Shown: in pieces, positions 8,385-33,792 of the stretch
Numbering within the stretch: position 1 is the stretch's first letter
Layout of the letters: each line of letters starts with the position of its first letter
Assembly (NCBI GenBank): GCA_963781615.1
Contig: CAWAGI010000008.1
Span: forward strand, 3,939 to 67,938
Reading direction: 5' to 3'
Length of the DNA: 64,000 nucleotides
Origin: an uncultured Actinomycetes bacterium
GTDB taxonomy: Bacteria; Actinomycetota; Acidimicrobiia; IMCC26256; JACDBD01
Notes under the pieces: generated by a model
The model's input: the letters and a program-made list of their open reading frames with translations, nothing else
Told to the model about the DNA's origin: nothing
The model's database searches: none
Position numbers and translations under genes: made by a program

Positions 8385-8559
8385 AGGGCTCCCTTCTCGA
8401 CGGGCGGTCGTGACTGATGTACCCGAACCGGTCGCCGGCGACGCCGGGAATCGCCGCCTGAATCATCCGCTCCGGGCGATGCGCTCCGGGCCCGATGCGG
8501 CCACGCTGGGTGCCGCTTCGCATCCCGGCTGCCGGAGGCCGGGAGGAGAGAGGTTCCCC

Positions 8560-9949
8560 GTGGCTCTGCACCGCAAGCTCGTCGAAGACCTCACGCCCTT
8601 GGTCCTGGGCCCGATGTACGCCCGTCCGGGTGAGGCGGTGCGGGCACCACGCCACCGCATCCCGGATCTCGAGCTCGCTCCCGACACCGGCGTATCAGTT
8701 CGTGCGGGACGAGCTGATGCTCGACGGCAACGCCCGACTCAATCTCGCCACGTTCGTGACCACGTGGATGGAGCCCCAGGCCACGCAGCTCATGGCCGAC
8801 ACGTTCGACAAGAACATGATCGACAAGGACGAGTATCCGCGCACCGCGGAGCTCGAGCAGCGATGCGTGAACATGCTGAGCCGCCTGTGGAACTCGCCCG
8901 ACGAAGAGGAAGCCACGGGGACGTCGACGACGGGATCGAGCGAGGCCGCGATGCTCGGCGGGATGGCCCTGAAGTGGCGCTGGCGCGAGCGTCGTCGAAA
9001 GGCCGGCAAGCCGACCGACGCCCCGAACATGGTGATGGGCGCGAACGTCCAGATCTGTTGGGAGAAGTTCTGTCGCTACTGGGACGTCGAGGCTCGCCTC
9101 GTCCCGATGGAGGGGGACACCTATCACCTCACTGCTGCCCAAGCGGCGGAGCACTGCGACGAGAACACGATCGCCGTGGTCGCCGTCCTGGGATCGACGT
9201 TCGACGGTTCGTACGAGCCCGTCGCCGACATCTGCGCCGCGCTCGACAAGCTCCAGGCCGACACCGGTCTCGACGTGCCCGTCCATGTCGACGGCGCCTC
9301 CGGCGGGTTCATCGCACCCTTCATCGATCCCGACATCGTGTGGGACTTCCGTCTTCCCCGCGTGCAGTCGATCAACGCCTCGGGCCACAAGTACGGGCTC
9401 GTCTACCCGGGTGTCGGGTGGATCATCTGGCGGGACCCGGACGCGTTACCCGACGACCTCGTCTTCGACGTCAACTACCTCGGCGGGAACATGCCCACGT
9501 TCGCGCTGAACTTCTCCCGACCCGGCAATCAGGTCGCGGCGCAGTACTTCAACTTCCTGCGTCTCGGGATGGACGGCTACCGGCAGGTGCAACAGACGTG
9601 CCGTGACGTCGCCCGCTACACCGCCGACGCCATCGGCGAGCTCGGGCCCTTCGAGCTCATCACCGACGGGAGCGAGCTGCCCGTGTTCGCGTTCTCGCTC
9701 AAGAATCCGGGCGGGCCGTACACCGTGTTCGACGTGTCCGAGCGCCTCCGGGAGAACGGCTGGCTCGTCCCGGCGTACACGTTCCCGGAGAACCGCCAGG
9801 ATCTGGCCGCGCTCCGGGTCGTGATCCGGAACGGGATGTCACGCGACCTCGCCGACCTCCTGATCGCCGACCTCAAGACGCACATGGCGCGCCTCGACCA
9901 GCTCCAGGCGCCGCTGCCGCAGCCCACCCACGAGAGCTTCCACCACTGA
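8560..9949 (+). CDS. gadB: Glutamate decarboxylase (frameshift near 8690)
   Basis: DELMLDGNARLNLATFVTTWME, NMIDKDEYP, HVDGASGGF, SINASGHKYG (PLP lysine); N-terminus VALHRKLVED lies in the adjacent frame after GGAGAGAGG. Confidence 0.95.
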
Positions 9950-10036
9950 GGAGTGGTCATCCTCGGACGCGCTCGCTCTCGCAGTCTCTGAGCGCGAGGA
10001 TCGGCGCTTCGTCGATGCGCCCGACCGTCGAAGGGG

Positions 10037-11377
<1,341 letters not shown>

Positions 11378-23093: not shown

Positions 23094-24026
23094 TCAGCGT
23101 GCGAGCGAGGCCGTGCGGGTGTACCAGTCGACGTAGCGGCGAAGCCCGTCGGAGAAAGGTGTCTCCGCCTCCCACCCCAGCACGCGTTTCGCCTTTTCGC
23201 CCGAGATGACCCGGCCTTCGTAGTCGCCCGGGCTGAGCGGACCGCCCTCGATCGTGAACGGCGATCCGAGCAGGTCGCGGACCTCTTCGGCGATCCGCCG
23301 GATCGTGATGGGTTCGGGGCCCTTGAGGTTGAACACCTCGTTCTCGGCGTCGCCGGAAAGCGCGGCCAGGTGGGCGCCGGCGAGGTCGTCGACGTACACG
23401 TAGTTGCGGAACTGCGAGCCGTCGCCGTTGACCGTGTTCGCCTGGCCCTCGAGCGCCTGCCGCACGAACCGCGGGATCACGAGGTTCTCCGACATGCCCG
23501 GCCCGTACACGTCGCCGTAGCGCAAGATCGTGAACGGGGTGCCGTAGAGCTCGCAGTAGTTGTGGGCGATGAGCTCTTCGGTGATCTTCGACGACGTGTA
23601 GATGTGCCCCGCGCTCGGGAGATGGAACGGCGCGTCCTCGTCGATCGGGGCGTCGCCGTGCGCGCCGGCGTAGACCCACGCCGTGCTCGCCAGCACCGTC
23701 CGGCGCACCTCGTTGCGCCGGCTGGCCTCGAAGACGTTCGCCGCGCCCGCGACGTTCACCTGGACGGCCGAGACCGGACGCGCCAAGGCGTCGCCGGCGT
23801 CGGACATCCCCGCCAGGTGGAACACGGTGTCGAGGTCACGCGTCGCCTGGACCAGCTCCGCAAGATCCAGCACGTCGACGTGCCGGTACGCGAGGTCCGA
23901 TCGCTGGGGGCGGTGCTGATCGAGGACGACCACGTCGGAGCCGGCAGCGGTCATCCGATCCGCCACGCACGACCCGATGAACCCCGAACCGCCGGTGATG
24001 CCGATTCGTCCCGCCGGTTCCTGCAT
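23094..24026 (-). CDS. NAD-dependent epimerase/dehydratase (NDP-sugar)
   Basis: ITGGSGFIG, FHLAG, YTSSK (YxxxK), LRYGDVYGP, GDGSQFRNYVYVDDLA. Confidence 0.92.
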   Translation of the reverse strand: MQEPAGRIGITGGSGFIGSCVADRMTAAGSDVVVLDQHRPQRSDLAYRHVDVLDLAELVQATRDLDTVFHLAGMSDAGDALARPVSAVQVNVAGAANVFEASRRNEVRRTVLASTAWVYAGAHGDAPIDEDAPFHLPSAGHIYTSSKITEELIAHNYCELYGTPFTILRYGDVYGPGMSENLVIPRFVRQALEGQANTVNGDGSQFRNYVYVDDLAGAHLAALSGDAENEVFNLKGPEPITIRRIAEEVRDLLGSPFTIEGGPLSPGDYEGRVISGEKAKRVLGWEAETPFSDGLRRYVDWYTRTASLAR

Positions 24027-24089
24027 CGCGCTCCCGGTCGTCGTTACCTGGTAGAGCCGAGGTTACGCTCCTGAGTCCTCCGTCAAGTC

Positions 24090-24240
24090 TCAGTGCGCGA
24101 CGAGGATGGTCTTGACGAGGGCGATGAGAACACTGAGCGCGAGCGCGGTCACACGCGTAGAGACACGCCGCACGCGCGGCCTATCCGCGATCCGGGCGAG
24201 GAAGTAGGCGACGACACCGATGAGGAGGGCAGGCAGTCCC
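24090..24240 (-). pseudogene. Degraded 3' fragment paralogous to the membrane protein at 7411..7947
   Basis: LPALLIGVVAYFLARIADRPRV..CLY..TALALSVLIALVKTILVAH* versus VPALLIGIVAYVVARIAGRPRVISCLYGITALALGVLIALVKSILAAH*. Confidence 0.8.
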
Positions 24241-24260
24241 GGACACGACAACGTCGCCGC

Positions 24261-25430
24261 TCAGCGGCCGCCTGGTGCCGACGTGAGGACGGGGACAGGT
24301 TCCGCGTCACGCCGTCGGACGTGACGCGCGGCATTGATCACTCGGAACCCGAAATAGGCGAGCGAGAGCGGAAGTGCGATGGCGAACACGACCATCGTGG
24401 CCGCCTGGTCGGCGTTGGAGACGACGGGAGGCGCCAGGTGCCTCATCGGCGTGCCGATCCTGTCGTGCAGCAGGAACAAGGCCGCGCCCGCGAGCAGTAC
24501 GGCAGCAGCGAGCACCACTCGCGAGCGTGTGAGCATGGCACCAAGGTCGTCGCTCACCGTGTGCACGGCCCGCGGGATTCGGACCCGGTCGCCGACCGCC
24601 GACCACGGAAAGAAGATCGAGTACGCGACGACACTCCCGGTGAAGTCGATGCCGAAGGCGAGGAAGATGGCGAAGTGGAAGACGACGGCCGCCGCGCAGA
24701 ACAGGCGCAGCCGTCGCGGTGAGACGATCGCGATCGCGAATCCCAGCTCGAAGAGCACCGTCAGGTAGTCGAGCGGCTTCCAGAGCAGCGCGCTCGTCGA
24801 CTCGAGCGGCAACGTGCCGAGCAGGCCGTCGTCCGGGGCCACGAAGTGGTAGTGCACGACATGCGAGCGCACTGCAAGCGTCGAGGGATCGATCCACCCA
24901 GAGGCGAGCTTCGGCAGCACCGCCGTGAGCATCAGGAACCCCAGCACCAGCGCCGCGAGCGCGACTGGCCACGCCTCGGCCTGCCGCTCGGCGCGCCCGG
25001 GTTGGCGGACGGCGTCGACCGAGTAGGCATCGCCCCAGTTGGACGCGGCCATGATCACGAGCACCGCCGCGAGGTAGGTGCCGGAATGGTGGATGTGGCC
25101 GAAGGAGTACGTGAACCCGTCGACCGTCAAGAGCAGCAGTCCCGTCACGCAGGAAGCGAGCCGTGTGTGATAACCGACGAGGAGCGCGACGGTCGTCACC
25201 GACAGCACGACGGAGAGGGCTGTGAGCGCTCCAGAGGACGGCACGTCACCGATCAACCGCAACGGCCCCGGCGGTGGACGGTAGAAGGCCTCCGGGAGCG
25301 AGCTCATCCAGCGCACGTCCGGGAATCGCTACAGGACGAGATACGTCGCGACGAGAATCCGTGAGATCGCGAGCGATCGAGGCGTGGGCGTGAAGGAATC
25401 GAACATCCAGTGGTCGAGACGGCGACCCAT
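24261..25430 (-). CDS. HTTM-like multi-pass membrane protein (frameshift near 25320)
   Basis: LLVGYHTR, SFGHIHHS, WGDAYSVD, AVLPKLASGW, TVLFELGF, VFHFAIFLAFGIDF; N-terminus MGRRLDHWMF in adjacent frame. Confidence 0.75.
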
Positions 25431-26050: not shown

Positions 26051-27064
26051 TCACGCGGTGTCCCAGCTCGCACGGTGGATCACGCGAGCCGGGCCGGCAC
26101 GGGCTCGCCGGCGTTCGCACGCCGCGACCACGCGCGGTGTCACGACGCGATCGAGCGCGGCACGCGCGCGGTGGACGACAGCGCGTATGCGTCCACGGAG
26201 GCCGTCTCCCGACTCCTGTCGTCGCCCGAGCCGCCGCTCGCGATGCCCCTGACGGAAGATGTCGTCGATGGCCAGGTCCGTGAGCTGCCAGGAGTCGTTG
26301 AACCGGCGGAACGATCGCTCGGCCCACTCGTCGCTCCAGCGCGGCAGGTAGAAGCGGTAGTCGGCCAGCGTGTTGCGCTTCGGCCACGGGTACCGCACCA
26401 CGACCGACGGCTCGAACCAGATCTCGCCGCCTATGGCCACAACCTGCAGCGAGAGGGTCGAATGCTCCCGCGCCGCGATCAGGCCGTCGTCGAAGGGGCC
26501 GATGCGCCGGAGCACGCCCACCCGGGCGAGGAGGCCGTGCGCCTCCACGTACTCGGTCGGGGCTCGCGTGAGCTCGGCCAGAGCGCCGACGGGGCGATGC
26601 ATATGCGTGTTGTGCTCTTCGAAGCGCCGAGCCGTCCCGTCGCTCACGATCCGACACGTTCCGCCGGCAAAGTGGATCTCCCAGCGGTCCCGTCGCCCCC
26701 ACAGGACGGCCGCCGCGACCAACACCACGCCCGTGTCGTCCGCGCATCGCTCCAACCCCTCCAACCATCCGTCGTCGACGAACGTGTCGTTGTCGAGAAA
26801 GCACACGTATTCGGTGTCGACGTGGCGCATGGCCTCGTTGCGGGCCTCGTTGGACGTCATCACGGCGTCGCGATGGATGAGCGTAAAATCGTGATCGTCC
26901 GCGAGATGTGCGAGGCGTCGCCAGATCCGCCGCGGTGCACCGCCGTCGACGACCACGATCCGGCTGGGCGCGGGCGTGCGTTCGACCAACGTCTCGAGCA
27001 TCCGCGGTGTCACGCTGTACGACTCGCGCGGCACCACAGCGATCGTCGTTCGTGGCTGGCCCAT
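26051..27064 (-). CDS. Glycosyltransferase family 2
   Basis: IAVVPRESYS, IVVVDGG, ARNEA, YVCFLDND, GPFDDGL, REHSTL. Confidence 0.9.
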   Translation of the reverse strand: MGQPRTTIAVVPRESYSVTPRMLETLVERTPAPSRIVVVDGGAPRRIWRRLAHLADDHDFTLIHRDAVMTSNEARNEAMRHVDTEYVCFLDNDTFVDDGWLEGLERCADDTGVVLVAAAVLWGRRDRWEIHFAGGTCRIVSDGTARRFEEHNTHMHRPVGALAELTRAPTEYVEAHGLLARVGVLRRIGPFDDGLIAAREHSTLSLQVVAIGGEIWFEPSVVVRYPWPKRNTLADYRFYLPRWSDEWAERSFRRFNDSWQLTDLAIDDIFRQGHRERRLGRRQESGDGLRGRIRAVVHRARAALDRVVTPRVVAACERRRARAGPARVIHRASWDTA

Positions 27065-27118
27065 AGCCGGATCCCCCCGTCCCGGCCACGGTAACACGCG
27101 TGCGAGGATGCTTCCGTC

Positions 27119-28234
27119 GTGAGGATCCTCTTCCTGACCCCGTTGTACGTTCCGCACGTCGGCGGCCTCGAGACGCTCGTCCGCCAGCTTGCCGGTGCGC
27201 TCCAAGCACGGGGTAACGATGTTGCGATCGTCACCTCGCACGGTCGCGAGGTCGCCTCCGGCGACGACGTCGTCGACGGTGTGCCAGTGCGCCGCGTCGG
27301 CGCACACGATGTCGTCGAAGCCCGGGACGCGGCGGCGATCCTCCGCGTCGAGCTCGATATCCTCCGGTTCGCCCGGGATTTCGCGCCGGACATCGTGCAT
27401 TCGCACGACGCGGGCCCGGTCCTGTGGATGTACTCGCGGGTGGCACGCCGCGACCCGCGACCGCTCGTCGTCACGTTGCACAACGTGATGACACGCAAGT
27501 TCGCGTCGGTGCTCCCCGTGCTTGCAAAGATGCTCCGCGACGCCGATTGGATCACGGCCGTGTCGCAGGCAGTTGCCGACGACGTACTCGAGTACGAGCC
27601 TTCGGTGGCGTCACGTACATCGGTCATCGTCAACGGGATCGTGCCACCGGTGCGCGACGCATCGGCGGTCCCGGACGGCCCACCGAAATTGCTCTGCATG
27701 GGAAGGCTCGACCGGCAAAAGGGCTTCGACATCGCCATCGCCGCATTCGAGCGGCTCTGCGGCCCGTGCCCGGATGTCCGGCTCGTTGTCGCCGGTGATG
27801 GGCCCGAGCGCAATCGTCTGATCGCACTGGCGTGCTCGCTCGGCGTCGACGACCGGGTCGACTTCGTCGGCGAGGTCGACCGAGCGCAGGTCGGGGCGCT
27901 GCTCAACGCGTGCACCGCCGTCGTCATGCCGTCGCGGTTCGAGGGCTTGCCGCTCGTCGCGCTGGAAGCGGCGTGGGCCGGGCGACCGGTCGTCGCGGCC
28001 GCGGCTCCTGGTCTGACCGACGCCGTCGTGCCCGGTGAGACCGCAGTGATGGTCCCGGCCGAGGACGCCGACGCGCTGGCGAAGGGCATCGCCGAGCTCC
28101 TCGCCGCCCCTCGGCGCGCCGGCGAGTTGGGCCGGAGCGGACGCGCTGTCGCCGAGAGTCGTTACTCGCTCGATCGCTGCGTCGACGACTACGAGCTCGT
28201 CTACCACCGTGTCCTGGGGAAGGGCCTTTGCTAG
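27119..28234 (+). CDS. Glycosyltransferase family 4
   Basis: YVPHVGGLET, GRLDRQKGFD, PSRFEGLPLVALEA (Ex7E). Confidence 0.93.
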   Translation: MRILFLTPLYVPHVGGLETLVRQLAGALQARGNDVAIVTSHGREVASGDDVVDGVPVRRVGAHDVVEARDAAAILRVELDILRFARDFAPDIVHSHDAGPVLWMYSRVARRDPRPLVVTLHNVMTRKFASVLPVLAKMLRDADWITAVSQAVADDVLEYEPSVASRTSVIVNGIVPPVRDASAVPDGPPKLLCMGRLDRQKGFDIAIAAFERLCGPCPDVRLVVAGDGPERNRLIALACSLGVDDRVDFVGEVDRAQVGALLNACTAVVMPSRFEGLPLVALEAAWAGRPVVAAAAPGLTDAVVPGETAVMVPAEDADALAKGIAELLAAPRRAGELGRSGRAVAESRYSLDRCVDDYELVYHRVLGKGLC

Positions 28235-28275
28235 CGTGCCCCGGCGTGACGGCGAGTGTGGGGCACGCGCAATCC

Positions 28276-28695
28276 GTGTTCGAGGTACGCCCGACCGTGA
28301 GGCACGAGCGCCTCGACGACGAGGTCATCGCGATCGACCTCGAGAGTGGCGCGTACTTCGCGTTGGACGACGTCGCCGCTGTCTGCTGGTCGATCCTCGC
28401 CGCCGGCGGGACCCTCGACGCGGCGGTCGACGCGACCGTCGCATGCTTCGACGTCGCATCTGAGACCGTGCAGCGTGACGTCGAGGGCTTCGTCGACGAG
28501 CTCGTCCGGGTCGGACTGCTCGCGCCGGCCGACGGGTCACCGGAACACGCCCGGGTGCCGCACACGGAGCAGGACGACCGTGCATATAAGCCGCCGGCCA
28601 TCGAGCGCTTCGACGACCTCGAGGAGCTCCTCGTGCTCGACCCGATTCACGAGGTCGAGGAGGCCGGCTGGCCGGCCACTCCCGCCGACCGGTAG
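28276..28695 (+). CDS. PqqD/RRE-domain protein with leader-peptide-like C-terminal tail
   Basis: HERLDDEVIAIDLESGAYFALDDVAAVCW...DVEGFVDELVRVGLL; tail YKPPAIERFDDLEELLVLDPIHEVEEAGWP. Confidence 0.88.
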   Translation: MFEVRPTVRHERLDDEVIAIDLESGAYFALDDVAAVCWSILAAGGTLDAAVDATVACFDVASETVQRDVEGFVDELVRVGLLAPADGSPEHARVPHTEQDDRAYKPPAIERFDDLEELLVLDPIHEVEEAGWPATPADR

Positions 28696-28707: not shown

Positions 28708-29403
28708 TTGGCCACCGACGATGCCGGCCGCGTCAGCGTCGTCGTCGCCGTCCGCGACGGGGAGCGCTACCTTGCCGAGGCGCTCGACAGCATCCTCGGC
28801 CAGTCCGCTCCGCCGGGTGATGTGGTCGTCGTGGACGACGGCTCCACCGACGGGACTGGAGCGGTGCTCGAGCCGTACGAGCGCCGGGTCCGGGTCGTGG
28901 CACAGCCGGCCGAGGGCGTCGCTGCCGCGATGAACCGCGGGATCGCGGCGTCGACGGGCGAGATGCTCGCGTTCCTCGACGCCGACGACGTGTGGCCCCC
29001 GACCTCGCTCGAGTGCAGGCTCGCCCGCCTCGCGATTCCCGACCGGCCGGACGCCGTCTTCGGTCGGATCGCCCAGTTCGTGAGCCCAGAGCTCGGCCCG
29101 GCCGCGGCGAGCACATTCCGGTTCGACCCCGCCCCCGTCCACGCGCCCATGTTTCAGACGATGCTGATCCGGCGCGAGGCCTTCGACCGAGTCGGCGCCC
29201 TCGCCACCGACTACGTGATCGGAGCGAACATCGACTGGTCGTCGCGTGCTCGCGCCGCCCACGTGCGCACCGCGCTGGTCGAGGACGTCGTCGCGTTGCG
29301 ACGGCTCCACGGATCGAACCTCGGCGTCACCGAGCGCCGGCGACAGACGGAGGACCTCGTCCGCGTCGTGCGCGCCCATCGTCGGCGCACGCTGTCGAGC
29401 TGA
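28708..29403 (+). CDS. Glycosyltransferase family 2
   Basis: VSVVVAVRDGERYLAEAL, VVVDDGSTD, AFLDADD. Confidence 0.92.
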   Translation: MATDDAGRVSVVVAVRDGERYLAEALDSILGQSAPPGDVVVVDDGSTDGTGAVLEPYERRVRVVAQPAEGVAAAMNRGIAASTGEMLAFLDADDVWPPTSLECRLARLAIPDRPDAVFGRIAQFVSPELGPAAASTFRFDPAPVHAPMFQTMLIRREAFDRVGALATDYVIGANIDWSSRARAAHVRTALVEDVVALRRLHGSNLGVTERRRQTEDLVRVVRAHRRRTLSS

Positions 29404-29413
29404 GAAGACCTCG

Positions 29414-31025
29414 TCACCCTTCGACGACGCGCACGGCACGGAGCTGGACCGATGGCCGCGCATCACCCGGGCCCCGATCCCTCCGGGCCGGCGCGAACGG
29501 CTGCTGCGGTCGGATCACCACGTCGATCGGCCGGCACCAGTCACCCAGCCAGCCCGGGACGTCCAGGCGCGGCGGCGTGTAGTCGCCGCTGCTCCCGAAC
29601 CGCCACTCCGCCAGCGGCCGCCCGTTCACGAGCACGACCGCGCGCGGGTTGGGGCTGCGGTGCGCGTCGTCGCCGAAGCGGAACTCGATTGCGAGCTGCC
29701 GCCCCCGCGGCACCGTGGTGTCGAGCGCCAGGCGCGCTTCTGCCCCGTCCGTCCACACGCCATCGAGCATCGGCCAGCTCCAACCCGATCCGGCGACGCG
29801 ATCGAGCGCGGCTGCGGTCGTGAGCTCGATCCACTCCCCGGGACGGAGGGCGCGCGGCGCCGGCGGGCGGGCGAACGGGCCGAGCCCGCGGAGCGCCGCC
29901 ACCTCGATTCGGCGCGGCCGCCCGACGAGCGCGAGCGCGGCGCTGACCGCCGGATACCGGCAGAGCGCAGGCTCGATGCGCCGCCGAAACATGTCGCGTG
30001 CGGCTCGGATTGGACGTGTCTCGTCGCCGTGCACGGCGGCGGCGCGCGCCAGCTCGCTCAGCCGCGGGAAGGATCGGCCGCGGATCGTGCCCGTCTCCGT
30101 TCGCGGCGAGAAGCCACTCACGGACCCCCGCTCGGTCACGATCCATCTCCGCCGCCGCGCCTCGAATGGAGGAGGCGCCGAGCGCCCTCGCCATGGTGTC
30201 CAGTGCCTCGCTTGCCAGGTCGTGCACGCCGAGCTCGCGAGCGCGACGGGCGAGCTGTCGCCCGTCGACGTGGTCGAGCACGCCGGCAACGTCTGCGATC
30301 CATGCCAGGCGGTGTGCGGGCTCGCTGTGCGAGGCGTGCTCGATCAGGTGCAGAACCTGGTCGGCCTCGTCGAGCGCGAGCAACTCGATCTCCCCGAAGC
30401 AGACGCGGCGGGTGCGGCGGAACAGCTTGTCGTCGACGCTGCCCGCTCTCACCGCCTCGAACGCGTGCCAGTGCAAGTCGAAATTGTCGTAAGGCGTGCC
30501 CCGTTCGTAGTTCCAGCCATGGCGTCGCAGCACCAGCCGCCGGGCGAGGAACTCGGACGAGACCCCGCCCCGTGCGACCCATCCGGCCGCATCGAGCGCC
30601 CGGGCGGCCTGCATCGCGCTTCCCGCGGGGACGAGCAGGTCGACATCGCCCATCTCACGGGCGCCCCATGGGCATCGCCCCGAGGCAAGAAGTGCGGCAC
30701 CCTTCATGAGCACGGTCGGGATGCGGGCGTGGGCAAGCGAGCGCAACGCGGGAGCGACGGCGTGGCTGCGAAGCTGGTTCGCCGTCCAGACCCATCGGTA
30801 CTTGCCCCGCAACCGGGGCGGCAGGCAGTCGGCGCTGCCCTGGGCCGCGAGGTTTGCGTACACGCGGGGGAGGAGCCGCGCCTCGTCGAACGGCAGGTCG
30901 TCGAGTTCGACGCCCGCGAACCACTCCTCCCACACGGCGCGCGCCTGCGGGCCCGACACTGCGGCGGCACGGAGGAGGAGACGGTCGCGCGGGCCCGGTT
31001 CGCTGAACCTTGTGCGACGTCCCAT
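29414..31025 (-). CDS. Nucleotidyltransferase (NTP_transf_5-like) with C-terminal beta-sandwich domain; frameshift near 30110
   Basis: VLMKGAAL, REMGDVDLLV, DLHW, WIADV; C-terminal GSGWSWPMLDGVWTDGAEARL. Confidence 0.85.
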
Positions 31026-32066
31026 TCAGGTGCAGTGCACGAGGCCGGCGACGGCGTCGGCGATCTCGTCGGCGTCGTCGCCGAGCTCGAGCACGAATCC
31101 CGGAACGCACTCGGCGACCCGAGCGAGAAGGCAGAGCGTGTGCTGGGTCGCGCCGAACAGGCCGAACACGGTGCTTGGCGCCATCGCGCGCAGGACTGTG
31201 CCGGGCGTGGTGGGCTCCAGGCGCACGCGTCCGGTGAGCCGCGGGACGACGATGGCGCGCAGGGGCGCGCTCGTGGCGAGGAGACGGTCGTAGGAGCCGG
31301 CGAGGTCGAGGATCGCCTTCTCGCGGTCGAGGCGGTCCGCGTTACGCACCGTCGGGCGGAATTCCGGAAGCCGCTCGAGTGCGTCCGGTTGCAGCTTCGC
31401 GGTCGTGTACACACGGTGCACGACCGGCGGAGCGCCCCCGTCGACCAGGCAGTAGTCGTCCCCGAAGAACTGCATGCCCGCGCGCAAGCACGTCAAGGAC
31501 GTCGTCGACTTGCCGGCGCCTGCCCCGCCGACGAGCAGCGCGGCCCCCGCCGGACCGGCGACGGCCGCCGCGTGCGTGAGCTGCATGCCGCGACACGCAG
31601 CCCACCACGAGAGGATGAGCCGCAAGGGTGACGCCGACTGCCAGTAGGCCATGAGCCGCGCGTCCTCGATCCAGAAGCGGGCGTGCGACGTCGCCCGGTC
31701 GAAGAGGCTGAGCGACGCCGTGTGCACGTCCACCGCGGTGAGGAATCGCTCGTCGCAGTACGTTTTGACCAGCCCCAGGGGCCGGAGGTCCTCGGGGTGC
31801 CAGGGGGCCTCGCCGATCGGCATGCCCGAGGTCGCGCTGTCGAACATGTCGACGACCAGGTCCGGTGCAGTCGGCGGAACCATCTCCGCCGACGGGCGCG
31901 CGAGCGCCGGATCGGTGCGCGCGACCAGCTCGGCGCCGGCGGCGCGCACGAGCACCTGCTTGCCCGCGATCTCGTAACAGCGGTCATGACGCCCGCAGGC
32001 CTCGGCGGCGGCGTCGAACAGCGCGCCCGCGCCGGCAAAGTACCGGCGGGCGGACGAGCTGCTCAT
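31026..32066 (-). CDS. HPr kinase-like P-loop kinase
   Basis: LTHAAAV, LLVGGAGAGKSTT (Walker A), FFGDDYCLV; ATGA-coupled to the upstream gene. Confidence 0.88.
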   Translation of the reverse strand: MSSSSARRYFAGAGALFDAAAEACGRHDRCYEIAGKQVLVRAAGAELVARTDPALARPSAEMVPPTAPDLVVDMFDSATSGMPIGEAPWHPEDLRPLGLVKTYCDERFLTAVDVHTASLSLFDRATSHARFWIEDARLMAYWQSASPLRLILSWWAACRGMQLTHAAAVAGPAGAALLVGGAGAGKSTTSLTCLRAGMQFFGDDYCLVDGGAPPVVHRVYTTAKLQPDALERLPEFRPTVRNADRLDREKAILDLAGSYDRLLATSAPLRAIVVPRLTGRVRLEPTTPGTVLRAMAPSTVFGLFGATQHTLCLLARVAECVPGFVLELGDDADEIADAVAGLVHCT

Positions 32067-33596
32067 CGTGCCGGCTCCGGAAGGCGGGGCCAGCCGGCCT
32101 CGTCGACGAGCAGGCGGGGCTCCCGGATGAGCAGGTGCGCCATGTCGTCGTACGCCTCGACCACCGGAGCCTCCCACCTCCGGCCCACGGGCTCGGCGCC
32201 GTCGGGCCCTCGCGAGCCGTCGACCGTTGCCGCTCGCGCGAGCAGGCCCGCGCGTTCGAGTCGGGACGTGAGGCGCATGACGTCGGCCTTCACCACTTCG
32301 AGCGGCGCGCCGTACTGCCGCGTCAGCCGACGGGCCACGCCACCCAGTGTCGCCGGGTGCTCGAACGACCTCCAGACGTCCGCGGCGCTGCCTGCCATCG
32401 CGTAGTACGTGCCGCGCTCGACATCGATGGCGACGACCTCGTTGTCGAGACGTTCGTGAACGATCCCGGGGGCGTTTCGCATCACGACGGAGTCGAGGCT
32501 CTCGTGCCCGAGCGACCGGTAGACGTCCGCATACGCGCACGCGCACGATACGACGTCGAATCGCACCGCCCGCCGGCGCGCCCGCTCGCACATGTCGTTC
32601 GTGCGCATGGGATCGGCGAGGAGCCGGTCGACGGCCGCCGCGAGCAGCGTCGGCGTCGTCCGGCGAGACGAGGAGCCCCGTGAGGCCGTCCTCGATCGTC
32701 TCCGGTAGCCCGCCGACCCGGGTGGCGACGACCGGGCGGCCCAGGTGCGCAGCCTCGAGTGCCACCAGCGAGAAGCCCTCGATCGTTCGCGACGGCACGA
32801 GCACCATCGATGCATGCGAGATCTCGCGCAGGATCTCCTCGCGCGGCAGGCTGCCGAGGAACCGCACACGCGACGCGATCCCGAGCCGTTGTGCCTGTGT
32901 CCGCAGGTTGTGCTCCTCTTCGCCGGTGCCGGCGAGGTGGAGCGACAGGCCCGGGCGGCGCCCCGTCAGGCGGCCGAGCGCCTCGATCGCGAGGTCGAAC
33001 CCCTTCTGGTCCTGGAGCCGACCGGCGGCGAACAGGTGGCCGGTCGGTGGCCACGGTGCGGAGTCGCTCGGCGCCTCGATCGCATTCGGAATTACTTGCA
33101 CCCGGTCGAGGTCGAGCTTCGGGACGGTTGCGGCAACCGACTCACGGACGCCGCTCGACACGGTCGTGACCACGTCGGCGGTCGCCAGCATGCGCTTCGT
33201 GACGCGGTTGAACAGGGCAGGCTCCTCGATGGTCCCGTGCACGCTGATGACGAGCGGGAGTGGAGCCCGTTGGTGGCGCCGCCACACGAAGAAGGTGTTG
33301 AAGTCGAGCCCGTGGACGTGCCGGAGCGTGACGCCATGCCGTGCTTCGATGTCACGGAGCCGACGCGTGACGTCGAGGATCGCGGCCGGATCGGGCGAGC
33401 GCGCCGCGGCGACGAATGGGAGGCGATACACCGGCACGCCGTCGACGGCGGAGGCCGCAGGCCCGTCGTCGTCGACCTCGGTCACGATCACCGGCTCGTA
33501 GCCCTGGTCCCGGAGCAGGGGCAGGGTGTGGCGAAGGAGCGTCTCGATGCCCCCGACGTGGGGGACGTAGCGGGTCGGGGCGATGAGGATGCTCAT
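32063..33596 (-). CDS. GT4 glycosyltransferase-PqqD/RRE fusion with leader-like tail (frameshift near 32650)
   Basis: YVPHVGGIET, GRLQDQKGFD, EGFSLVALEA; GT4 C-terminal helix (YADVYRSL) runs in frame into HERLDNEVVAIDVERGTYYAM...WEAPVVEAYDDMAHLLIREPRLLVDEAGWP. Confidence 0.82.
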
Positions 33597-33792
33597 GTGT
33601 GGGCCCCGTCGGGTCGGCGGCCTCCCAGCCGCTGCCGGCCGAATCCGGGAGGCATGGCGAGAGGTTAGGCGTCGCGGCTCATGCCGGACGGTTGACGACC
33701 TCGTTGCCTGCAATCCGTTGCCGGCGCCGGGGCGTACATCCTCGAAGCCAGCCTCTCGATGTGCGGGCGAGTTCAGCCGGGGGAGTTGAAAC

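Follow-up and report, generated by a model that had tools for sequence, protein, structure and literature searches.

A small protein encoded in a 64,000-nucleotide stretch of DNA from an uncultured Actinomycetes bacterium (GenBank assembly GCA_963781615.1, contig CAWAGI010000008.1, positions 3,939 to 67,938; hereafter the window) appears to carry its own leader peptide. The protein, PqqD1 (28228-28695, + strand, 155 amino acids), is a RiPP recognition element (RRE; RiPP, a peptide that is ribosomally synthesized and then post-translationally modified) of the PqqD family whose C-terminal end reads ...DDRAYKPPAIERFDDLEELLVLDPIHEVEEAGWPATPADR. We propose that this tail provides a discrete RRE of the lasso B1 type with a built-in ('self') leader in two parts, of which the first would fold back into the leader cleft and the second would serve as a handle for co-encoded enzymes, and we give this statement as a whole a probability of roughly 55%. 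The window holds a second copy, PqqD2 (32063-32482, - strand), which ends in ...WEAPVVEAYDDMAHLLIREPRLLVDEAGWPRLPEPAR and is 38% identical to PqqD1 over 140 residues. An initial annotation of the window had described, behind a flexible linker in both proteins, tails with a shared pattern whose start matches the motif bound by lasso RREs. Translation of the open reading frames (ORFs) bears out its strings, coordinates and pattern for both copies, and the Tyr120 codon (at 28585) and the PqqD1 stop (28693-28695) both fall in the span it had marked (28560-28695).

Both proteins belong to Pfam PqqD (PF05402), with 53.0 bits for PqqD1 and 47.4 bits for PqqD2 at a cut-off of 23.4. We ran AlphaFold2 (AF2) on PqqD1 with two alignments, of 88 and 150 rows, and obtained an overall predicted local distance difference test score (pLDDT) of 83-84. 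The modeled RRE comprises strands at residues 17-20, 24-29, 32-37, 42-47 and 98-101 and helices at 49-58, 63-74 and 78-94 (assigned with DSSP), an order of elements that fits the winged-helix fold. It equals the beta1-beta5/alpha1-alpha3 layout of PbaB1 and of LppB, the RRE of the LPP (linear polyphosphorylated peptide) clusters, plus one extra strand where the leader would lie (Popov et al., Nat Commun 2026, PMC13381572). The top Foldseek matches were TbiB1 and TfuB1, both structures complexed with leader peptides, at template-modeling (TM) scores of 0.84-0.89 normalized to the target; the best match, TbiB1 (5v1v_A), shared 36% identity at a TM score of 0.88. A profile search of the PDB likewise returned TbiB1 (E 6.4e-19), then TfuB1, PbaB1 and LppB. 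Residues of the RRE pocket were strongly conserved in a 150-row alignment: G41 in 150, Y43 in 149, W54 in 143 and L92 in 146 of the 150 rows, with position 88 being Phe in 101 or Leu in 42. Along PqqD1 we distinguish the following parts.

28228-28695, + strand: PqqD1, the tailed PqqD/RRE protein of 155 amino acids (ORF list), with the PF05402 match at residues 32-98.
28276-28530, + strand: the RRE domain proper, residues 17-101 (DSSP on the AF2 models, pLDDT 93-97).
28531-28584, + strand: a variable Pro/Ala-rich linker, residues 102-119, at 0.8 bits per column and of differing length among homologs.
28585-28614, + strand: the leader-like half of the tail, residues 120-129 (YKPPAIERFD), with the pattern Y-x-x-P-x-I (motif, AF2 strand and covariation).
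28615-28674, + strand: the ultra-conserved half of the tail, residues 130-149 (DLEELLVLDPIHEVEEAGWP), at 3.8 bits per column.
28675-28695, + strand: a short variable C-terminus (ATPADR) and the stop codon, at 1.1 bits per column.

The terminal sequence of PqqD1 behind the variable linker, YKPPAIERFDDLEELLVLDPIHEVEEAGWPATPADR, is conserved among homologs well beyond chance, an outcome on which the initial annotation had made its idea depend. A word-indexed search listed 120 homologs, of which 117 carry the tail motif, the remaining three being C-terminally cut fragments. We scored 1.84 billion representatives with a profile of the tail alone (36 columns, 82 rows), which matched 3018 clusters at E<=0.001, 1651 of them at E<=1e-10. 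Among the best 150 of these 3018 matches the tail was found only behind PqqD domains, and GWP lay 2-20 residues from the C-terminus in all of them. In the 150-row alignment, where the conservation figures are upper estimates, the information content per column was 2.0 bits in the RRE, 0.8 in the linker, 2.5 over residues 120-129, 3.8 over residues 130-149 and 1.1 past GWP, making residues 130-149 the most conserved part of the protein; D130, L134, P139 and W148 are invariant there, and D138 and H141 are each present in 149 of 150 rows. We also fetched 80 genome loci, partly via the pattern LL[LVR][LI]DP[IV]H[ED]V, so that positions 134-143 are enriched by construction; positions outside this pattern were near-invariant too (D130 and W148 in 80/80 loci, P123 in 78/80). 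These loci are spread over many phyla, and the consensus of their leader-like half is FxxPxLxKY[T/S], with Phe at residue 120 in 62 loci, Tyr in 13 and Trp in 3, and at residue 125 Leu in 63, Val in 7, Phe in 5, Ile in 4 and Met in 1. Because we found no public model for this family, we defined it here as a PqqD domain followed by a variable linker and [FYW]xxPx[LVIF]..D[ML]..LL[LV][LI]DP[IV]H[ED]V...GWP within 20 residues of the C-terminus. PqqD1 agrees with this definition at all positions, and PqqD2 in the leader-like half and GWP, not in the DP[IV]H core.

The tail is a property of one subfamily and not of PqqD proteins in general. As a check independent of the tail, we queried 200 sampled Actinomycetota genomes with the RRE alone and read 21 homologous loci (one of them, L095, from an unpublished genome, G148): 20 encode short PqqD/B1 proteins that end just past helix 3. 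The other one (L110 in genome G091, of the same class as the window's genome) carries a variant tail with a one-residue insertion, in which the extra residue precedes GWP (..IDPVHDVSQEAGWP) and the leader start has Leu for the aromatic residue and no Pro at +3 (..EPLQFDRFDD..). The cassette to which the tailed protein belongs is patchy: among 41 related genomes including the source, 3 were found to have the tail (one of the three, G220, being unpublished). Free tail peptides were not found: a hidden Markov model of the tail, run over 26117 stop-to-stop ORFs of the 80 loci and the window, gave a single hit in each locus and two hits in the window alone, and a search for shorter tail-bearing proteins returned three matches, all resembling fragments of close relatives. 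Proteins shorter than about 130 amino acids among the top 150 tail-profile matches begin within the linker or helix 3, and we read them as probable N-terminally cut gene calls, not free peptides. Longer, fused forms were absent at E<=0.001 among 2859 candidates, a negative result of little weight.

We found several lines of evidence that the leader-like half docks in an RRE cleft. Both window copies carry the motif [Y/W]xxPx[L/V/I/F/A] read by discrete lasso and LPP RREs (PMC13381572), as YKPPAI in PqqD1 and WEAPVV in PqqD2. In both AF2 runs residues 121-130 scored a pLDDT of 92-93 and formed a strand at 125-128 or 126-128, beyond a linker that scored 83 over residues 101-110 and 73-77 over residues 111-120. 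On the order of the tail, which the initial annotation had made a test of its idea, the models gave a divided answer, with this half being confidently placed while residues 131-150 reached only 62-65. Furthermore, residue 120 covaries with residue 84 of helix 3. Upon counting 144 rows, we found Tyr120 with Asp84 in 37 and with another residue in 2, and Phe120 with Asp84 in 2 and with another residue in 103. Hence, Tyr120 is accompanied by Asp84 in 37/39 rows and Phe120 in 2/105, the other rows having mostly Ala, Ser, Gly or Thr; the two Tyr120 exceptions, L046 and L056, have Ala at 84. The counterparts of Asp84 are LppB D70 (chain residue D88) and PbaB1 Q79 (chain residue Q97), and the position is Asp in TbiB1 and TfuB1 (PDB profile alignments). 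In the described complexes LppB D70 hydrogen-bonds leader Y-16, and PbaB1 Q79 hydrogen-bonds W-15 (PMC13381572). Tyr with a carboxylate and Phe with a small residue is the pattern predicted for a direct 84/120 contact. The pairing is not the signature of a single clade, since it is present in loci titled Cryomorphaceae, Clostridia, Parachlamydiales, Solirubrobacterales and Acidobacteria and recurs in scattered lineages that otherwise have a non-Acidimicrobiia signature (L019, L024, L045, L051, L080, P0190). On a FastTree tree of the RRE built without column 84 (84 columns), with other RRE columns as controls, parsimony gave 8 changes for Tyr/Phe, 9 for Asp/non-Asp and 11 for the combined trait, so that 6 coincide; no more than 5 changes coincide between Tyr/Phe and any other RRE column, and the columns that reach 5 undergo 20-46 changes themselves. 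Plain mutual information between tail and RRE columns was set aside as evidence, its top ranks being dominated by clade markers (129D, 131L).

Taken together, the motif, the leader-binding type of the RRE, the confident AF2 strand and the 84/120 covariation lead us to regard docking of residues 120-129 in an RRE cleft as highly probable. That this happens within the same molecule is somewhat less certain, the protein's own cleft being the most likely place, and the suggestion of the initial annotation that the tail could act as a pseudo-leader in its own cleft is thereby well supported for these ten residues. We picture the leader-like half (Y-K-P-P-A-I-E-R-F-D) as folding back over the 18-residue linker into its own leader cleft: Tyr120 would sit in the first hydrophobic pocket, hydrogen-bonded by Asp84, Pro123 would lie against Phe88, Ile125 would enter the second pocket, and residues 125-128 would add a strand beside the sheet edge (strand 42-47). 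With such self-docking the RRE would be loaded at all times and probably kept folded and soluble. In the absence of its leader LppB is insoluble, and PbaB1 gains order when it binds (PMC13381572); this offers a plausible reason for tethering a leader, and by analogy an RRE with a built-in one would be self-sufficient.

The likeness to a leader might be a coincidence, with the tail being an independent C-terminal module, such as an anchor to a partner or membrane, that makes no use of the RRE cleft. The Y/F-x-x-P-x-L motif is short, the AF2 models were read for secondary structure and pLDDT, and residues 131-150 were modeled with low confidence. We nevertheless hold this to be very improbable, as the pLDDT of residues 121-130 beside a lower-scoring linker implies packing on the domain, the covariation singles out the very residue that holds the leader aromatic in solved complexes, and, in the 150 best profile matches, PqqD domains are the only ones that precede the tail. 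Autoinhibition, in which the tail would be a pseudo-leader that blocks the cleft until a true precursor encoded elsewhere displaces it, also makes use of the fit between the leader-like half and the cleft motif, and pseudo-substrates tethered in this way are often used in regulation. A third, weak PqqD-like match lies on another contig of the source genome (C3:307766-307936, E 4.6e-4, profile positions 5-61 only, without a tail) and would suit this scheme. Against it, no candidate precursor was found in or near the cassette, and a partner peptide encoded elsewhere would be unlikely to travel along with a cassette this patchy; the 84/120 covariation indicates selection for a good fit and not for a weak, displaceable one, and the top conservation of residues 130-149 would be left unexplained. 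We therefore consider autoinhibition improbable, and retain the permanently docked self-leader for residues 120-129.

For residues 130-149 the models gave, in both AF2 runs, a short helix at 131-137 within the low-confidence segment 131-150. Conserved segments that are modeled with low confidence are commonly those that fold on a partner, and D130-x-x-E133 may form a helix capping box. The genes next to the tailed proteins supply candidate partners, and the cassette in the window comprises the following.

32063-32482, - strand: PqqD2, the second tailed PqqD/RRE copy, by its PF05402 score and its identity to PqqD1.
32087-32176, - strand: the tail of PqqD2 (WEAPVVEAYDDMAHLLIREPRLLVDEAGWP), with the leader-like half and GWP kept and EPRL replacing the DPIH core.
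31026-32066, - strand: an HprK-like P-loop kinase of 346 amino acids (translation, Walker-A motif, NCBIfam HprK_rel_B and HprK_rel_A scores below cut-off).
29541-31025, - strand: a nucleotidyltransferase-fold protein, NTP_transf_5 (PF14907, 100.3 bits, residues 48-281).
28708-29403, + strand: GT2a, a short family-2 glycosyltransferase (GT2) immediately 3' of PqqD1 (PF00535, 97.4 bits).
27119-28234, + strand: GT4a, a family-4 glycosyltransferase (GT4) immediately 5' of PqqD1 (PF00534, 133.7 bits).
32480-33602, - strand: GT4b, a family-4 glycosyltransferase upstream of PqqD2 (PF00534, 110.9 bits).
26051-27481, - strand: GT2b, a second family-2 glycosyltransferase (PF00535, 57 bits, residues 155-274), whose listed ORF is over-extended at the N-terminus and overlaps GT4a.

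PqqD1 thus lies between GT4a and GT2a, and PqqD2 lies behind GT4b and is followed by the kinase and then by NTP_transf_5. The PqqD2 stop and the kinase ATG overlap as ATGA at 32063-32066 (- strand), and the NTP_transf_5 start (31025) is the base next to the kinase stop (31026-31028), which suggests that the three genes are translationally coupled. The TTG start of PqqD1 overlaps the GT4a stop, leaving the actual start of PqqD1 uncertain, and we placed the PqqD2 start at the ATG of ..VVMRNAPG.., where the upstream GT4b frame continues into PqqD2 without a stop. At the edge of the glycosyltransferase block (23094-25316, - strand) we noted an NAD-dependent sugar epimerase/dehydratase and an HTTM-domain membrane protein, the latter at 27.6 bits and so marginally below the Pfam cut-off of 27.7. 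About 17 kb upstream of the cassette (8495-11377, + strand), a pyridoxal phosphate-dependent decarboxylase adjoins a myo-inositol-1-phosphate synthase.

The association of the tailed protein with these enzymes extends beyond the window. Across 41 loci with long flanks, tblastn at E<=1e-3, at which misses are possible, found an HprK-like gene in 38, GT2 in 39, NTP_transf_5 in 32 and GT4 in 15, and the HprK-like gene stands immediately 3' of the tailed PqqD in 54 of the 80 loci. HPr-rel-A/HprK-related systems include a PqqD-family partner. The kinase scored 31.4 with HprK_rel_B (TIGR04355) and 18.4 with HprK_rel_A (TIGR04352), below the curated cut-off of 200, and its Walker-A residues G183, G185 and K186 as well as H165 were invariant in 50 rows. 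Complex prediction for the kinase (as an alignment) with the tail alone (residues 110-155), run without controls, gave scores of 0.02 and 0.00 against a mark of 0.32, values that count on neither side as to binding. We infer that residues 130-149 are a handle for the HprK-like kinase, the GT2 glycosyltransferases and NTP_transf_5, a reading that, taken by itself, we place at about even odds. This second part would consist of a capping-box helix, D-x-x-E-L-L-x-L, followed by D-P-I-H-E-V-x-E-x-G-W-P; instead of packing on the RRE, it would project from it as an invariant handle to the kinase, to one to three short GT2 enzymes and to the NTP_transf_5 protein, and would recruit or activate these partners or be acted on by them.

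Gene content varied among the related loci. Pfam scans of four low-GC loci found MsbA-like half-transporters in two (L034 and L053), a sulfotransferase in one and a kinase-GT2 fusion in one; in L034 the kinase is fused to GT2 domains in a protein of 865 amino acids. Longer kinase ORFs of 578-851 amino acids occurred in L009, L010, L034, L043, L057 and L071, among whose titles are Bacteroidales, Bacteroidetes, Lentisphaerae, Syntrophaceae, Desulfatitalea and Gemmatimonadaceae; in five of these six it is NTP_transf_5, not the kinase, that comes after PqqD, and in L071 it is GT2 genes. In a Nostoc locus (L020, 5904-7292, - strand), a SLOG (LSDAT_prok) protein and a DUF4231/SLATT-like protein with two transmembrane segments, a pairing typical of conflict systems, adjoin the tailed PqqD, and tblastn found no HprK-like kinase in this locus.

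With a kinase, a nucleotidyltransferase-fold protein and glycosyltransferases at hand, the tail, or the variable end after GWP, could also be the acceptor for decoration by these enzymes, a phosphate-linked sugar chain being one example. In that case the protein would be an RRE-precursor fusion, chaperone and substrate in one. This would account for the lack of a separate precursor in the 80 loci and the window, and the enzymes at hand resemble LppK/LppN and those of paeninodin and pseudomycoidin, by which a peptide Ser is first phosphorylated and then glycosylated (PMC13381572; PMC8498205). The residues available for such a modification speak both ways. The conserved part of the tail lacks Ser and Thr, which the initial annotation took as an argument against a kinase substrate; this holds for residues 120-149 of the two window copies only, as position 129 over the 80 loci is Thr in 52, Ser in 17, Asp in 7, Glu in 2, Arg in 1 and Met in 1, and hence Thr or Ser in 69/80. 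Position 129 is Asp or Glu in 9/80 loci and, in the clade of the window's proteins, Asp has replaced this Thr/Ser, and yet the kinase and its conserved residues are kept. By our own count from the printed LPP motif, the LPP phospho-Ser lies at +18 from the aromatic residue, which corresponds to the invariant D138 here (PMC13381572). LppK takes Ser only, leaving S3T and S3Y unphosphorylated (PMC13381572), whereas Thr is what the family most often has at 129; the Ser targeted by lasso kinases is C-terminal (PMC8498205), whereas the C-termini here are variable and not consistently Ser. Finally, RiPP cores are usually variable and the tail stretch is nearly invariant. On balance we judge a fusion of RRE and precursor to be unlikely. 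A conversion of a Thr/Ser129 phosphosite into an Asp phosphomimetic was left as a weak idea, because the kinase is kept where residue 129 is Asp and LppK refuses Thr (PMC13381572).

The second copy complicates the two-part self-leader. Two tailed copies were found only in the source genome, among 80 related loci and 40 related genomes. The tail of PqqD1 is canonical; PqqD2 keeps WxxPxV, Asp84 and GWP and carries the substitutions L137R, D138E, I140R and H141L, so that the conservation in both paralogs claimed by the initial annotation stands for the leader-like half and GWP and fails for the core in between. The nearest relative of PqqD2 that we read, L030, is canonical and retains LLDPIHQV. 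We ruled out a double frameshift behind the odd tail of PqqD2, since the codons differ by substitution and no alternative frame restores the motif. A frame change does occur in GT4b near 32640 (32600-32700, - strand; ..LLVSPDDAD / LLAAAVDRLLADP..), which has no stop of its own before PqqD2: tblastn with GT4a ends at 32649, and the C-terminal homology of GT4b goes on in another frame, running into that of PqqD2. The frameshift or fusion may be genuine, or the assembly of this genome (9 contigs, 75.75% completeness) may be in error here. The second arm of the cassette may accordingly be decaying or re-specialising, or it may carry an assembly error.

Several points weigh against the two-part self-leader. 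The loss of D138, I140 and H141 from PqqD2, the kinase-coupled copy, is awkward for a kinase-handle motif unless PqqD1 took over the job. About 130 of the 150 alignment rows were gathered through the tail, which is what makes the conservation figures upper estimates. The tree behind the covariation is weakly supported, and a test restricted to supported branches left a single independent pair and had no power; moreover, the covariation indicates contact between tail and RRE, not that both belong to one molecule, and the pairing partner of strand 125-128 and the distance between residues 84 and 120 lie outside the secondary structure and pLDDT read from the AF2 models. Docking in cis rather than between molecules, and the whole role of residues 130-149 including their contact with the enzymes, are steps that we infer.

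If correct, a natural self-leader would have consequences for how such loci are found and read. RREs are a common handle for genome mining of ribosomal peptide pathways, and to our knowledge every described RRE is paired with a separate leader-bearing peptide. A self-leader RRE would explain the precursor-less 'orphan' PqqD-kinase-glycosyltransferase loci, which number in the thousands, and genome-mining tools would need to treat such loci differently. With a protein of 155 amino acids and three or four neighbours, the cassette is a simple system for learning what it makes, and the Tyr120/Asp84 pairing is a specific and cheap mutational handle on docking. A more speculative extension, which we consider rather doubtful, is that the tailed RRE is a protein-borne primer, in which the self-loaded leader turns a RiPP tailoring set of kinase, nucleotidyltransferase-fold enzyme and glycosyltransferases to a fixed, protein-attached acceptor or, via the handle, to a non-peptide glycan. 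If so, the family would represent an unrecognised, phylum-spanning assembly of phosphate-linked glycans that descended from lasso/LPP-type peptide chemistry and needs no precursor gene, peptidase or cyclase.

Comparison with known systems places the cassette near two of them. The lasso B1 proteins solved with leaders, TbiB1-TbiA (5V1V/5V1U), TfuB1 (6JX3) and PbaB1-PbaA (9X90), share with PqqD1 the fold and sequence (see the TbiB1 values above), the leader motif and the pocket residues Asp84, Phe88 and Tyr43. They differ in being tail-less proteins of about 85-95 amino acids that end just past helix 3 and in working with a B2 protease, a cyclase and a separate precursor. Scores with the curated NCBIfam models for such proteins stayed below cut-off (lasso_PqqD_Strm 43.8 against 70, lasso_PqqD_Bac 29.0 against 80). 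Pfam scans found neither an Asn-synthase-like lasso cyclase nor a transglutaminase-like B2 protease nor a separate precursor in the 31 window ORFs or in 43 ORFs of four related loci, and signal peptidase and ATP-binding cassette (ABC) exporter families were likewise absent from the 31 window ORFs; the search for cyclase and B2 protease in the source genome covered the window. The description of the tail as a lasso leader or precursor in the initial annotation was thus apt as to the leader motif and too narrow as to the pathway.

The nearest described relatives are instead the LPP clusters of Bacillota (LppA/K/B/S/D/N; PMC13381572), which make linear and not lasso products. Both combine a discrete lasso-type RRE with an HprK-like kinase and an uncharacterised NTP transferase, lack a macrolactam cyclase, lie embedded in glycosyltransferase/polysaccharide loci, and have a YxxPxV leader whose Tyr is held by the helix-3 Asp (LppB D70, equivalent to D84 here). 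The co-location of RRE, HprK-like kinase and NTP transferase by which LPP clusters are recognized is indeed found in the window. In LPP clusters the precursor has a gene of its own, with the motif YxxPxVLxHQxIxFETxxS and a variable core that a SipW-like peptidase releases (PMC13381572). In the window no peptidase family was detected among the scanned ORFs and no free tail-like ORF was found, in searches that did not use LppA or LppS sequences as queries. In the cassette of the window, by contrast, the RRE supplies the leader with its own C-terminus, GT2 genes belong to the core set (39/41 loci), and there is no MsbA-like exporter, which L034 and L053 do have; its kinase scores far under the NCBIfam cut-offs, and its family spans many phyla whereas LPP is mainly found in Bacillota (PMC13381572). 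As no cyclase, peptidase or separate precursor was found, the locus is, judging from its gene content, neither a lasso nor an LPP cluster.

Paeninodin and pseudomycoidin biosynthesis offers a parallel for the enzymes, as the paeninodin kinase and the pseudomycoidin kinase plus nucleotidyltransferase resemble the pair of HprK-homolog kinase and nucleotidyltransferase-fold enzyme in the cassette; the pseudomycoidin nucleotidyltransferase-fold enzyme puts a hexose on the phosphate (PMC8498205). These enzymes target the C-terminal Ser of a lasso precursor (PMC8498205), whereas the tails here have no conserved C-terminal Ser and lasso machinery was not found beside them. In the literature open to our search, which covered freely readable main texts, we found no description of the tail or of its motif, including the motif string itself. 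A natural self-leader on a discrete RRE would be a new variation on a known recognition system. Engineered leader-enzyme fusions make RiPP enzymes constitutively active, with the leader in cis keeping the site occupied, which provides a lead for understanding the tail, not a test of it. Whereas those fusions are laboratory constructs on catalytic enzymes, the case in the window would be natural, ancient and built on a stand-alone RRE.

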